Shown here one piece after another: positions 48,401-51,400 of a stretch of DNA of 64,000 nucleotides (positions within the stretch are counted from its first letter, which is position 1; each line of letters opens with the position of its first letter). The stretch lies in the NCBI RefSeq assembly GCF_013167455.1, contig NZ_CP038328.1, one strand, 5' to 3'. Made by a program: the position numbers. The stretch is from Escherichia coli O157:H7. Its GTDB lineage: Bacteria > Pseudomonadota > Gammaproteobacteria > Enterobacterales > Enterobacteriaceae.

Positions 48401-51400
48401 GTCGTGCACGCAAGGACGAGCGCAGCAGCCACTAACCCCAGGGAACCTTTGTTACCGCTATGACCCGGCCCGCGCAGAACGGGCCGGTCATTATCTCATC
48501 GTGTGGAGTAAGCAATGTCGTGTGAAGAACTGGAAATTGTCTGGAACAATATTAAAGCCGAAGCCAGAACGCTGGCGGACTGTGAGCCAATGCTGGCCAG
48601 TTTTTACCACGCGACGCTACTCAAGCACGAAAACCTTGGTAGTGCACTGAGCTACATGCTGGCGAACAAGCTGTCATCGCCAATTATGCCTGCTATTGCT
48701 ATCCGTGAAGTGGTGGAAGAAGCCTACGCCGCTGACCCGGAAATGATCGCCTCTGCGGCCTGTGATATTCAGGCGGTGCGTACCCGCGACCCGGCAGTCG
48801 ATAAATACTCAACCCCGTTGTTATACCTGAAGGGTTTTCATGCCTTGCAGGCCTATCGCATCGGTCACTGGTTGTGGAATCAGGGGCGTCGCGCATTGGC
48901 AATCTTTCTGCAAAACCAGGTTTCTGTGACGTTCCAGGTCGATATTCACCCGGCAGCAAAAATTGGCCGTGGCATTATGCTCGACCACGCCACGGGCATC
49001 GTTGTGGGTGAAACGGCGGTAATTGAAAACGACGTATCGATTCTGCAATCTGTGACGCTTGGCGGTACGGGTAAATCTGGTGGTGACCGTCACCCGAAAA
49101 TTCGTGAAGGTGTGATGATTGGCGCGGGCGCGAAAATCCTCGGCAATATTGAAGTTGGTCGCGGCGCGAAGATTGGCGCAGGTTCCGTGGTGCTGCAACC
49201 GGTGCCGCCGCATACAACCGCCGCTGGCGTTCCGGCTCGTATTGTCGGTAAACCAGACAGCGATAAGCCATCAATGGATATGGACCAGCATTTCAACGGT
49301 ATTAACCATACATTTGAGTATGGGGATGGGATCTAATGTCCTGTGATCGTGCCGGATGCGATGTAATCATCTATCCGGCATACAGTAACTAATCTCTCAA
49401 CAACGCTCCCGGATATCCCAGCTGCCGCCAGGCTTCATACACCACAACTGACACCGCATTGGACAGGTTCATGCTGCGGCTGTCCGGCACCATCGGAATG
49501 CGAATTTTTTGTTCAGCGGGCAGGGCATCAAGAATGCTCGCTGGCAGGCCGCGTGTTTCCGGGCCGAACATCAGATAATCGCCATCCTGATAGTTTACGG
49601 CGCTGTGAGCAGGCGTACCTTTCGTGGTGAGGGCAAACAGGCGCTGGGGATTTTCTGCTTCGAGGAACGCGCGAAAGTCATGATGACGCGTAACGGCGGT
49701 AAACTCGTGATAGTCCAGCCCCGCGCGGCGCAGGCGCTTATCGTCCCAGGCAAATCCCATCGGTTCGATGATATGCAGACGAAAGCCGGTATTAGCGCAA
49801 AGACGGATGATATTGCCAGTATTTGGCGGAATTTCTGGTTCGTAAAGTACGATGTTTAGCATACTGCCCCCTTAGTGCGGGGGCAGGATAGCAGAAAATT
49901 GGTGAGCAGTGCGGCCTTTTCCCCTCACCCCGGAGGGGCGAGGGAGAAAAAAAGAGTGCGGTGTCGTTTCAGAGTGAGGGAGTACATACAGCGCCGAACG
50001 GTCCCCACTCCCTGAGGGAGAGGGTTAGGGTGAGGGGGCTCAAACGACTATGCCGCATTCCCTTTCGCCATCGGAGCCAGTGCCGTAGGCAACTCTTTAC
50101 CCAGCCCCTGCACCAGCGAATCTTGCGTAATTTCACTGATCGATTTCGCGCCAGTCAGCGTCATTGCCACTTTCATCTCTTTCTCGATCAGATTTAGCAG
50201 GTTAGCTACACCCGCCTGGCCCGCTGTTGCCAGCGCATACAGGAAAGCACGACCCAGCAGTACGGTGTCGGCACCGAGCGCAATCATACGCACGACATCA
50301 AGCCCGTTACGAATTCCGCTATCCGCCAGAATGGCGATATCACCTTTCACCGCATCTGCAATAGCGGGCAACGCACGAGCGGAAGAGAGTACACCGTCCA
50401 GCTGGCGGCCACCGTGGTTAGAAACTACAATCCCATCAGCACCAAAACGTACTGCATCGCGCGCATCTTCCGGATCGAGGATCCCTTTGATCACCATCGG
50501 GCCATCCCAGAAATCGCGGATCCACTCAAGGTCTTTCCATGAGATGGACGGATCGAAGTTATTCCCCAGCCAGCCGATGTAATCTTCCAGTCCGGTCGGT
50601 TTGCCGAGGTAAGCCGAAATATTACCTAAATCATGCGGACGACCGTTCAGGCCCACATCCCACGCCCATTGCGGATGCGTCACCGCTTGCAAGTAGCGGC
50701 GCATTGCCGCATTTGGGCCGCTCATCCCAGAATGCGCATCACGATAACGCGCTCCCGGTGTCGGCATATCCACGGTGAAAACCAGCGTCGAACAACCCGC
50801 TGCTTTTGCTCGCTCCAGCGCGTTACGCATAAAGCCGCGATCGCGCAGTACATAAAGCTGGAACCACATTGGGCGCTTGATGGCTGGCGCGACTTCTTCA
50901 ATCGGGCAAACGGAAACCGTTGAGAGAGTAAACGGAATGCCATGCGCGTCCGCCGCTTTGGCTGCCTGAACTTCGCCACGACGCGCATACATGCCACACA
51001 AACCCACCGGTGCCAGTGCTACCGGCATCGACAATTTCTCATTAAACAGCGTCGTTTCCAGGCTTAAGTCAGACATGTTTTTCAGAATACGCTGGCGCAG
51101 TGCCACTTCTGACAAATCTTCCACGTTGCGGCGCAGCGTGTATTCAGAATATGCACCACCATCCATATAGTGGAACAGGAACGGCGGCAGAATGCGTTGC
51201 GCTGCGGCGCGATAATCGCTGGCTGCGGAAATAATCATGCGTTTTTCTCCCTCGAATGCTCATTATGCTCACCGGGCAGGCGGGTAATCCGTGCGTGGCG
51301 AGCCTGATCTTCATCGAATCGTTTCATGGTGGTGTGAACAAAACTAAGGTGCGCCATCATTGCTTTACGCGCCCCGTCGGCATCACCAGCAAAAATGGCG

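Follow-up and report, generated by a model that had tools for sequence, protein, structure and literature searches.

Two intergenic spacers of Escherichia coli O157:H7, one between trmL and lldD and the other between mtlD and mtlA, carry a similar G/C-rich palindromic element, and the question arises as to which repeat family it belongs to and what, if anything, it does there. Both spacers lie in the window, that is, the whole 64-kb stretch of DNA that was analyzed. Their exact limits are 49863-50047 (185 bp) and 62674-62767 (94 bp), and the gene names given to their flanks by the sequence-only reading agree with those on the identical sequence in RefSeq O157:H7 NZ_AP018488.1; at both sites, the window is identical to O157:H7 genomes. 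That reading had described a palindromic element at two intergenic sites and had guessed that it belongs to a known E. coli family without naming it. The described sequence is present at the first site as CCCTCACCC (49922-49930, +) and GGAGAGGGTTAGGGTGAGGG (50017-50036, +) and at the second site as CCCTCACCC (62726-62734, +) and GGAGAGGGTTTGGGTGAGG (62727-62745, −). When both strands of the 64 kb were scanned with GGAGAGGGTWRGGGTGAGG, allowing up to 3 mismatches, three matches were obtained, all in these two spacers, against 0.02 expected from shuffles. The third, partial copy of this type is CGAGAGGGCTGGGGTGAGG (62702-62720, +). The word "palindromic" also holds at both sites: the lld spacer contains 10-nt perfectly complementary arms, CCCCTCACCC and GGGTGAGGGG, 97 nt apart, and in the mtl spacer, 62703-62720 pairs with 62727-62744 (18-nt arms, 89% complementarity), in addition to a 9-bp perfect hairpin. 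Many E. coli spacers contain short G/C-rich palindromes, which would favor a chance resemblance of the two sites or copies of REP or ERIC. Chance was rejected as practically impossible given the three matches against 0.02 expected and the profile E-values down to 7e-8 described below.

The candidates listed by the sequence-only reading were REP/BIME, RSA, box C and ERIC. Copies of REP/BIME or ERIC were rejected: neither the REP consensus (GCCKGATGCGRCG...CTTATCMGGCCTAC) nor the ERIC/IRU core (ERIC2 primer region, AAGTAAGTGACTGGGGTGAGCG) had any match in the 64 kb with up to 3 mismatches allowed, so that both are absent from the two sites, although in K-12 a BIME directly adjoins the mtl element. 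REP/BIME and REPINs resemble the elements studied here in that they, too, are short G/C-rich palindromes that lie between genes, frequently as inverted pairs, and are tied to spacer length variation, but the REP consensus is unrelated, and a simple hairpin has no need of the third block found in BoxC; at mtl, the BIME array of other strains lies beside the BoxC element, not inside it. The RSA consensus is 152 bp, as against units of 33-56 nt here. Rfam gave nothing at the gathering score at either site. Around the lld spacer, its output consisted of sub-threshold noise (naRNA4, PK-BYV and whalefall-1).

The repeats in both spacers are members of the BoxC family (synonyms: PIT element, TMECO and HPG1/HPG2), one of the four candidates. 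BoxC was reportedly described by Bergler in 1992 and also by Bachellier in 1999, with a 56-bp consensus, and PIT elements, with 25 copies, are said to come from the work of Hoyne in 2000. Holder et al. (2015; PMC4666352) state that the TMECO motif was "earlier described as BoxC", with PIT as a later name, and BoxC is listed among the E. coli repeat families with 56 bp and 32 copies (PMC2267715); the equivalence of BoxC and TMECO rests on these two statements. Described in 1992, the family was re-described in 2000, 2015 (PMC4666352) and 2016 (PMC5100583), in the last case as HPG1/HPG2, which are the same elements under another name. BoxC sequences are short, non-coding and G/C-rich, and they occur only between genes, in about 18 copies per E. 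coli genome. The full unit comprises three 9-nt blocks, namely a pyrimidine arm (Y, CCCTC(T/G)CCC), a purine arm (R, GGGAGAGGG) and a second purine block (R', GGGTGAGGG), the published TMECO consensus being CCCTCNCCC-N3-6-GGGNGAGGG-N3-GGGNGAGGG, with a TTA loop in type A and a CCG loop in type B (Holder et al., 2015; PMC4666352).

A regular expression for this strict pattern, run on both strands, matched nothing in the window, and a profile search was used instead. An nhmmer profile built from 23 K-12 TMECO copies recovered exactly four pieces, with no other hit at E < 0.1 in the 64 kb. These pieces and two associated features are as follows:

49922..49944, − strand: BoxC/TMECO type B remnant, orthologue of K-12 TMECO #18 (= HPG2 #44); Y CCCTCGCCC (49944-49936), loop CTCCG, R' GGGTGAGGG (49930-49922); partial profile match, model positions 1-23, E = 0.002.
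49945..50003, no strand: interior of the head-to-head pair, between the two BoxC copies, 59 nt, single-copy.
50004..50036, + strand: BoxC/TMECO type A copy, orthologue of K-12 TMECO #17 (= HPG1 #43); Y CCCACTCCC (50004-50012), loop TGA, R GGGAGAGGG (50016-50024), loop TTA, R' GGGTGAGGG (50028-50036); full-length profile match, E = 7e-8.
62703..62720, + strand: partial inverted partner lacking the Y arm; R GAGAGGG, loop CTG, R' GGGTGAGG; partial nhmmer match, E = 0.05.
62726..62757, − strand: BoxC-like copy with 8-nt blocks; Y CCCTCTCC (62757-62750), loop TCAC, R GGAGAGGG (62745-62738), loop TTT, R' GGGTGAGGG (62734-62726); full-length nhmmer match, E = 6e-4.
62750..62757, + strand: junction of the 135-bp length difference from K-12, GGAGAGGG, from allele comparison.

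The type A copy misses the strict pattern by a single base (A at 50007), the mtl copy by its 8-nt blocks and the type B remnant by the loss of the middle block. The three-block sequence, the loop types, the intergenic multi-copy placing, the inverted A+B pairs and the variable host spacers are those of BoxC/PIT/TMECO, while the copies in the window differ in being degraded: one has a Y-arm substitution, one has lost its R block through a 12-nt deletion, and the mtl copy has blocks of 8 nt rather than 9 nt. The identification is thus qualified, as the window copies fail the strict published pattern. No repeat feature is annotated at these positions in RefSeq for K-12 or O157:H7, and a literature search with the sequence strings gave, beyond Holder 2015, only a primer in an Enterobacter paper.

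In the alignment, the lldD-trmL spacer corresponds base for base to the K-12 spacer that holds TMECO #17 (3781061-3781028) and TMECO #18 (3781121-3781156), which are listed in Table 1 and Supplementary Table S2 of PMC4666352; the same K-12 pair is given as HPG1 #43 at 3781038(−) and HPG2 #44 at 3781145(+) by Kaplan et al. (2016; PMC5100583). The two copies, a type A element with a TTA loop and a type B remnant, are inverted and head-to-head. In the type A copy, position 50007 in the pyrimidine arm is A, versus T in K-12. In the remnant, the middle R block is gone, and the difference between the window and the K-12 allele at this site is, according to the alignment, exactly the 12 nt CCCTCTCCCCGG missing between CCCCGG direct repeats, with the junction within 49928-49933. 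The interior of the pair holds one further purine block, AGAGTGAGGGAG, at 49971-49982. This interior is not itself repeated, since the whole lld spacer was found at a median of one place per E. coli genome (megablast).

The mtl element as a whole (62703-62757) consists of the 8-nt-block variant and its partial inverted partner, which form a tail-to-tail BoxC pair with a 5-nt center and have the block order of the K-12 pairs 1+2, 7+8, 10+11 and 12+13. The mtl copy is absent from the strict K-12 list of Holder et al. (PMC4666352), and its assignment is to be read as probable, judging by the profile match and the architecture. The BoxC-like sequence was identical in all five E. coli alleles examined, which come from different lineages and include K-12. 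At the junction GGAGAGGG, K-12 has one BIME (two REPs) and a second small hairpin, whereas other strains have 2 to 4 BIMEs; the strain studied here is without the 135 bp of BIME that adjoin the mtl element in K-12. These 135 bp lie in K-12 between two copies of GGAGAGGG and account for the spacer difference (229 minus 94). A mechanically called mtlD ORF extends upstream through the mtl element.

A 36-nt consensus was matched in 5413 of the 5426 E. coli genomes, at a median of 18 places (range 1-32) and at 14 places in O157:H7; none of the listed matches fell under an annotated feature. Across about 5,400 E. coli genomes, both spacers were strongly length-polymorphic, as has been published for the BoxC family. 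At least five length alleles were found for lldD-trmL (185, 197, 154, 72 and 47 bp), and likewise at least five for mtlD-mtlA (94, 229, 318, 419 and 520 bp), counts that describe these two spacers by themselves. The variable part at mtl is the BIME array (0 to 4 BIMEs), not the BoxC core. In about one fifth of the genomes, the lldD-trmL spacer is 47 bp long and lacks any BoxC, so that the element is dispensable there; filled and empty alleles differ by a replacement of about 21 nt, with no clean insertion and target duplication. According to Holder et al., TMECO loci are more variable than control spacers, and deletions at palindromic pairs leave a hairpin (PMC4666352). Both differences between the window and K-12 are bounded by short direct repeats within the element, and, by parsimony, the 12-nt and 135-bp events are probably deletions rather than insertions.

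In the single-stranded state, the first two blocks pair as a hairpin, and the third block can sit in its major groove through triads of the G.G:C, A.A:T and T.A:T types; another possible fold is a four-tract G-quadruplex built from the two purine blocks. A script counted 8 of 9 complete triads for 50004-50036, the same as in the common "mm" class, and 8 of 8 for the mtl copy, so both full copies are compatible in sequence with a purine-motif intrastrand triplex, while 49922-49944 would form a hairpin only. As DNA, this remnant gives a 10-bp hairpin of −10.7 kcal/mol (z = −3.5) and the mtl pair reaches −20.6 kcal/mol (z = −4.7), whereas the hairpin of 50004-50036 is no better than shuffles (z = +0.5). 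Consensus type A and type B oligonucleotides, with and without one mismatch, form a stable triplex in vitro according to CD and NMR; no DMS protection was seen in vivo, where the triplex went undetected by its own proposers (PMC4666352). Eukaryotic H-DNA follows the same triad rules and has likewise been proposed to stall polymerases and to destabilize the genome; BoxC differs in that it needs a single strand with three blocks rather than a mirror repeat in supercoiled duplex, its triplex having been seen in vitro.

Kaplan et al. (2016) offer another reading, in which GGG-AGA-GGG-TTA-GGG-TGA-GGG alternates between a G-quadruplex, a hairpin with the C-rich arm and duplex, as an ion- or supercoil-dependent regulatory switch. 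Ion-dependent switching of oligonucleotides was observed by CD (PMC5100583), the K-12 orthologues are listed there as HPG1 #43 and HPG2 #44, and no canonical four-tract G3 motif, (G3N1-7)x4, other than 50016-50038 occurs on either strand of the 64-kb window; the T-to-A change at 50007 also weakens the competing hairpin (z = +0.5). However, the NMR imino spectra of Holder et al. were read as triplex, not G-quadruplex (PMC4666352), and neither a regulatory effect nor a linked transcription-factor motif was found (PMC4666352, PMC5100583). Only 50016-50038 keeps four G3 tracts: in this strain, two of the four are gone from the type B copy, which is the HPG2 orthologue, and the mtl copies have only three, so the switch would be missing from three of the four pieces. 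Moreover, the lldD-trmL BoxC spacer is wholly missing in many strains. We therefore regard a regulatory switch as quite improbable.

A role at the RNA level may also be considered, in which the hairpins would block 3'-to-5' exonucleases in the manner of REP and protect the upstream mtlA or lldD mRNA relative to the downstream part. On this reading, transcription would run through the mtl element, within the mtlADR operon, and through the lld ones just after lldD. Their RNA hairpins are strong: on the minus strand, the mtl spacer folds into a long hairpin of −38.7 kcal/mol (z = −5.1), with none of 200 shuffles as stable, and the lld remnant (49922-49944) again forms a 10-bp G/C hairpin. BIME/REP sequences at comparable positions have been reported to stabilize mRNA (PMC2267715), and the mtl core is invariant in five alleles while the neighboring BIMEs vary in number. 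Against this, promoter and terminator scans gave nothing in either spacer, with no T-run terminator after the G/C hairpin at either site; Hoyne and Maher (2002), as far as they are cited in PMC4666352, report that the sequences act neither as terminators nor as promoters and do not affect RNA polymerase; and the K-12 copies have no strand or gene-relative position bias (PMC4666352). Together with the dispensability of the lldD-trmL copies, this makes an RNA-level role unlikely in our opinion.

Rather, we suggest that the elements are very probably BoxC copies that are prone to form structures, are most likely neutral or selfish, and are here in decay. They would act mainly by stalling replication locally and by letting it slip between the short blocks repeated within them, by which host spacers may become hotspots of insertion and deletion. 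In line with this, MutL-bound replication-error regions show an enrichment (Z = 10.6; PMC11754648) of the G-quadruplex set of Kaplan et al., part of which is made up of BoxC-type HPG1/HPG2. The window copies would then be decay products: the hairpin arm of one would have acquired a point mutation, the middle block of another may have been lost through the 12-nt deletion between CCCCGG repeats, and at mtl, decay would account for the 135 bp by which the spacer falls short of that in K-12, the junction lying within GGAGAGGG. Neither promoter nor terminator activity was found for the family (PMC4666352), which is not known to regulate genes in any other way. Against this explanation stand the lack of any strict-pattern match in the window, the absence of the mtl copy from the K-12 list of Holder et al., the triplex that went undetected in vivo, and the invariance of the mtl core in 5/5 alleles, the last being unlike a purely unstable sequence without function. 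It should also be noted that the higher variability at TMECO loci is a correlation and that spacer variation is also fed by neighboring BIMEs, by the remnant of an IS end and by recombination among lineages.

As for the origin of the family, REPs have a dedicated transposase (RAYT), and we know of no dedicated transposase for BoxC. It is possible, though doubtful, that BoxC units serve as terminal inverted repeats for small non-autonomous MITE-/REPIN-like pairs moved in trans by some enzyme, in which case the E. coli copies, those of the window among them, would be old insertions that no longer move. The lldD-trmL pair is bounded by the perfect 10-nt inverted repeats, some strains have this spacer without the element, and two K-12 tail-to-tail pairs (ygfF-gcvP and alx-sstT) share their interior. 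In addition, the strict motif is multi-copy in taxa at great evolutionary distance, where the sequences of the blocks are unchanged. Head-to-head pairs with a conserved interior of ~60-90 nt occur in Pseudomonas sp. dw_612 (9 pairs) and in a Verrucomicrobiales MAG (4 pairs), and their similarity ends at or a few bases past the outer GGGTGAGGG blocks. A broader version, in which BoxC units are not structural motifs in their own right but the ends of mobile elements with a conserved interior that have reached distant bacterial phyla, and the E. coli copies, including the head-to-head lldD-trmL pair, are immobilized, decaying relics, seems rather unlikely to us. No transposase-like gene was found between or beside the pairs at the loci inspected. 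A search for genes enclosed by inverted TMECOs gave, at one locus (L122), only a tandem composite array with spurious "SPSPQRGEG" ORFs and, at another (L127), long ORFs of ordinary appearance, none of which looked like a mobility gene on inspection. According to Holder et al., TMECO copies are not associated with transposons, phages or plasmids (PMC4666352), and in E. coli, the filled and empty lldD-trmL alleles do not differ by a clean insertion and the interior of this pair is single-copy. A mobile origin is compatible with neutral or selfish, decaying BoxC copies, as it concerns the origin only.

The finding is genuine yet ordinary, in that the family and the lldD-trmL copies individually have already been catalogued, and the role and spread of the family are not advanced by this window alone. 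Nevertheless, catalogues based on the strict pattern overlook degraded copies, such as all four pieces in the window. BoxC elements can lengthen ORF calls, as in the case of mtlD, and they explain the length differences of these two spacers between strains.

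A G/C-rich palindromic repeat had been proposed, in the sequence-only reading, at two intergenic sites, the trmL-lldD spacer (lld site) and the mtlD-mtlA spacer (mtl site). The O157:H7 RefSeq genomes carry an identical sequence at both sites, flanked by trmL/lldD and mtlD/mtlA, which confirms these gene names; the orientation of the window is opposite to that of K-12 MG1655. The spacers and their elements are as follows.

49863-50047: trmL-lldD spacer, 185 bp
49921-49930: CCCCTCACCC, in the trmL-lldD spacer
50004-50036: CCCACTCCC-TGA-GGGAGAGGG-TTA-GGGTGAGGG, in the trmL-lldD spacer
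62674-62767: mtlD-mtlA spacer, 94 bp, between the mtlD start (62673) and the mtlA stop codon (62768-62770)
62703-62757: GAGAGGG-CTG-GGGTGAGG-CTTTT-CCCTCACCC-AAA-CCCTCTCC-GTGA-GGAGAGGG, in the mtlD-mtlA spacer

The presence of the repeat at both loci, and their similarity on alignment, were borne out by the 19-nt pattern GGAGAGGGTWRGGGTGAGG, which, with up to three mismatches, matched in the window only at 50017-50035 (+), 62702-62720 (+) and 62727-62745 (-), while shuffled sequences predicted 0.02 matches. The lld site has an inverted repeat with perfect 10-nt arms, 97 nt apart, and the mtl site has one with 18-nt arms of 89% complementarity, in addition to a perfect 9-bp hairpin. Chance similarity is excluded by the expected number of matches. 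A REP or ERIC identity is excluded as well, neither repeat being present at the two sites. Scans for terminators, promoters and Rfam families were also negative there.

The elements at both sites are BoxC, also named PIT, TMECO and HPG (HPGQ); since these descriptions concern one element, the family has four published names. According to Holder et al. 2015 (PMC4666352), TMECO is the element earlier known as BoxC and rediscovered in 2000 as the PIT element, with the consensus CCCTCNCCC-N3-6-GGGNGAGGG-N3-GGGNGAGGG and two types defined by the second loop (A, TTA; B, CCG). The same source gives 23 copies in K-12, every one intergenic, and an inverted A+B pair at five loci. Its Table 1 includes TMECO #17 (CCCTCTCCCTGAGGGAGAGGGTTAGGGTGAGGGG, 3781061-3781028) and #18 (CCCTCGCCCCTCCGGGGAGAGGGCCGGGGTGAGGGG, 3781121-3781156), both placed between lldD and trmL in Supplementary Table S2, and the G-quadruplex motifs HPG1 #43 and HPG2 #44 of Kaplan et al. 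2016 (PMC5100583) are at the same two K-12 positions. For E. coli, Petrillo et al. 2008 (PMC2267715) count BoxC among the known families of stem-loop repeats, together with PU-BIME and ERIC, and give it as 56 bp with 32 copies in the literature. Thus, the expectation of a known intergenic family held: the lld copies match TMECO #17 and #18, and of the candidates named at that stage box C stood, while REP/BIME and ERIC did not. The family is already known, and its lldD-trmL copies have been catalogued one by one in K-12.

The strict TMECO pattern had no match anywhere in the 64-kb window. A search profile built from the 23 K-12 copies found exactly four pieces, and none other below E=0.1.

50004-50036, + strand: BoxC copy, full-length profile match, E=7e-8
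62757-62726, - strand: BoxC-like copy, full-length profile match, E=6e-4
49944-49922, - strand: BoxC remnant, profile positions 1-23, E=0.002
62703-62720, + strand: partial BoxC copy, profile positions 17-34, E=0.05

The window copies are decayed variants missed by strict-pattern catalogues. The trmL-lldD spacers of the window and K-12 align base for base. The right lld copy is TMECO #17 with T->A at 50007, its pyrimidine arm being CCCACTCCC. By the triad rules it has 8 of 9 complete triads, the count of the 'mm' class that holds most of the 23 K-12 copies, with the mismatch at the other A position. The left copy is TMECO #18 minus 12 nt (CCCTCTCCCCGG). On the strand of the element these make up the entire middle purine block, between two CCCCGG direct repeats; the remnant is a plain 10-bp hairpin (DNA fold -10.7 kcal/mol, z=-3.5). 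The block is also retained in a third allele class (L005), and therefore a deletion in the window's lineage would be the parsimonious direction.

The mtl copy reads CCCTCTCC-TCAC-GGAGAGGG-TTT-GGGTGAGGG on the minus strand, with 8-nt blocks and eight possible triads, and is followed after 5 nt by the inverted partial copy. This block order is that of four K-12 tail-to-tail pairs (hrpB-mrcB, fepB-entC, ygfF-gcvP and alx-sstT), from which the mtl element differs by a much shorter centre and the absence of the second pyrimidine arm. Its sequence is identical in K-12; mtlA and mtlD are absent from the supplement of Holder et al. (PMC4666352), as expected because the copy departs from the strict pattern. 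It should be noted that the mechanically called ORF containing mtlD (61525-62847, - strand; 440 aa versus 382 aa annotated) begins 58 codons before the annotated mtlD start and runs across the BoxC element. BoxC-type repeats can lengthen ORF calls.

The lldD-trmL spacer was compared in 60 records, evenly spaced down a ranking of ~5,420 genomes.

185 bp: the window's allele, ~28% of sampled records
197 bp: K-12 allele with two intact BoxC copies, ~22%
154 bp: ~15%, e.g., L005 151-304 (E. coli Combat11I9)
72 bp: ~7%
47 bp: without BoxC, ~20%, e.g., L007 151-197 (DS566) and L008 1601-1647 (MRY15-117)

The 47-bp class reaches ~28% if five partial-match records are included, and the one fetched (L008) does belong to it. 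Between filled and empty alleles ~21 nt are replaced, and their alignment gave no clean insertion with target duplication. The 47-bp alleles diverge from the filled ones within the final two lldD codons (synonymous Ala-Ala, other stop codon), which suggests that the whole spacer was replaced by recombination rather than by simple insertion or excision. In the 154-bp allele, a perfect 35-nt palindrome, CTGTCTCTTGATCAGGAGATCTGATCAAGAGACAG, has taken the place of the interior that separates the two BoxC copies. The same 33 nt with which it ends are found elsewhere under the annotation of IS4/Tn5-family transposase genes, whereas the full 35-mer, by positions among the matches listed, appears confined to the lldD-trmL locus. 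The palindrome may be a relic of an IS end, or a minimal two-end element that inserted into a BoxC block.

At the mtl site, alleles of 94, 229, 318, 419 and 520 bp contain 0, 1, 2, 3 and 4 BIMEs, beside which the BoxC-like core is invariant; the BIME number (at 62750-62767; comparison loci L004, L009, L010 and L011) grows from 0 in the window to 4 in ~101-bp steps. The window and K-12 spacers differ by 135 bp, the exact spacing of two GGAGAGGG copies in K-12, and right of the junction the window matches the flank of the second copy. The window-versus-K-12 differences at both sites have junctions within short direct repeats of the BoxC element, as would be expected if replication slippage had produced both of them. 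Excess variability of TMECO spacers was reported by Holder et al. (PMC4666352).

As RNA, the mtl hairpin folds at -38.7 kcal/mol (z=-5.1). Such stability and the invariance of the mtl core fit a REP-like role of the RNA hairpin, but we consider this role unlikely, as published functional tests do not support it and many strains do without the lld element. Hoyne and Maher 2002, as cited in PMC4666352, observed that polymerase was blocked in vitro, but found neither promoter nor terminator activity and no influence on RNA polymerase or conjugation.

Matches to the 36-nt BoxC consensus occur in 5413 of the 5426 complete genomes of E. coli (median 18 places per genome, range 1-32; 14 in O157:H7), and no annotated feature overlies any of those listed. 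A strict-pattern scan with one genome per species gave at least 120 loci (L012-L131), among the matches listed in Pseudomonas, Polaromonas, Methylomagnum, Hyphomicrobiales, Deltaproteobacteria, Verrucomicrobiales, Scytonema and a Methanomicrobiaceae MAG, in agreement with the published occurrence of the motif in >260 genomes. The three 'N' positions are nearly constant among these listed matches: CCCTC(T/G)CCC in the pyrimidine arm (Y), GGGAGAGGG in the purine arm (R) and GGGTGAGGG in the second purine block (R'). Across the distant phyla listed there, T/G at Y position 6, A at R position 4 and T at R' position 4 are nearly fixed. The G form of Y, CCCTCGCCC, recurs in many of the listed taxa; it mismatches R and would pair with R' via a G-T wobble, a hint that Y:R and Y:R' hairpins could be alternatives to each other.

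Composite repeats of ~150-270 bp, made of head-to-head TMECO pairs, were observed in Pseudomonas sp. dw_612 (L116-L131, of which L122 is a tandem array) and in the Verrucomicrobiales MAG RYN_621 (L021, L025-L027). Their organisation resembles that of a MITE or REPIN. The Pseudomonas repeats also produce spurious 'SPSPQRGEG...' ORFs. In K-12, the ygfF-gcvP (L134) and alx-sstT (L135) pairs have similar 27-nt interiors (TAAATATTCGCGCCAGTGCCGGCCTGTTC versus TAATTTTTCGCACCGATGCTGGCCTGTTC), and at least for these two the sequences indicate that the repeated entity is the pair, not the single unit. A mobile-element origin of BoxC units draws on this common interior, on the conserved interiors of the composites and on similarity that stops at, or a few bases past, the outer GGGTGAGGG blocks. 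However, no transposase gene was found between the pairs or linked to them at the loci inspected, and in E. coli a filled site does not differ from an empty one by a clean insertion. We regard this origin as possible although rather doubtful.

Directly upstream of the trmL start (49860-49862), the minus-strand RNA contains a perfect 8-bp G/C hairpin, CTGCCCCC-N7-GGGGGCAG (49864-49886; -19.9 kcal/mol, z=-3.6). Its 3' arm lies over the likely Shine-Dalgarno sequence (AAGGGGG), and the fold reaches the AUG. The hairpin is identical in 6 of 6 spacer alleles compared, BoxC-less ones included, and may control trmL translation. Three Rfam matches reached the gathering score in the window.

11982-12069, - strand: C4 antisense RNA
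12096-12172, - strand: isrK
25836-25874, + strand: JUMPstart element

The adjoining C4 antisense RNA and isrK suggest prophage-derived DNA.

In vitro, CD and NMR showed that consensus TMECO oligonucleotides fold into a stable intrastrand triplex of the purine motif; the same report detected no triplex in a duplex context or, with DMS footprinting, in vivo (PMC4666352). Kaplan et al. described ion-dependent switching between hairpin and G-quadruplex (PMC5100583). Counting both strands, the window has a single canonical (G3+N1-7)x4 motif, 50016-50038. It is the purine half of the 50004-50036 copy, whose G-rich strand, from the K-12 map and the established oriC position, would be the lagging-strand template. 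A G-quadruplex switch would apply to just one of the four window pieces, and we regard it as improbable. The G4 set of Kaplan et al. is over-represented in replication-error regions bound by MutL (Z=10.6; PMC11754648). BoxC elements are most probably neutral or selfish structure-prone repeats, whose main effect would be local replication error.
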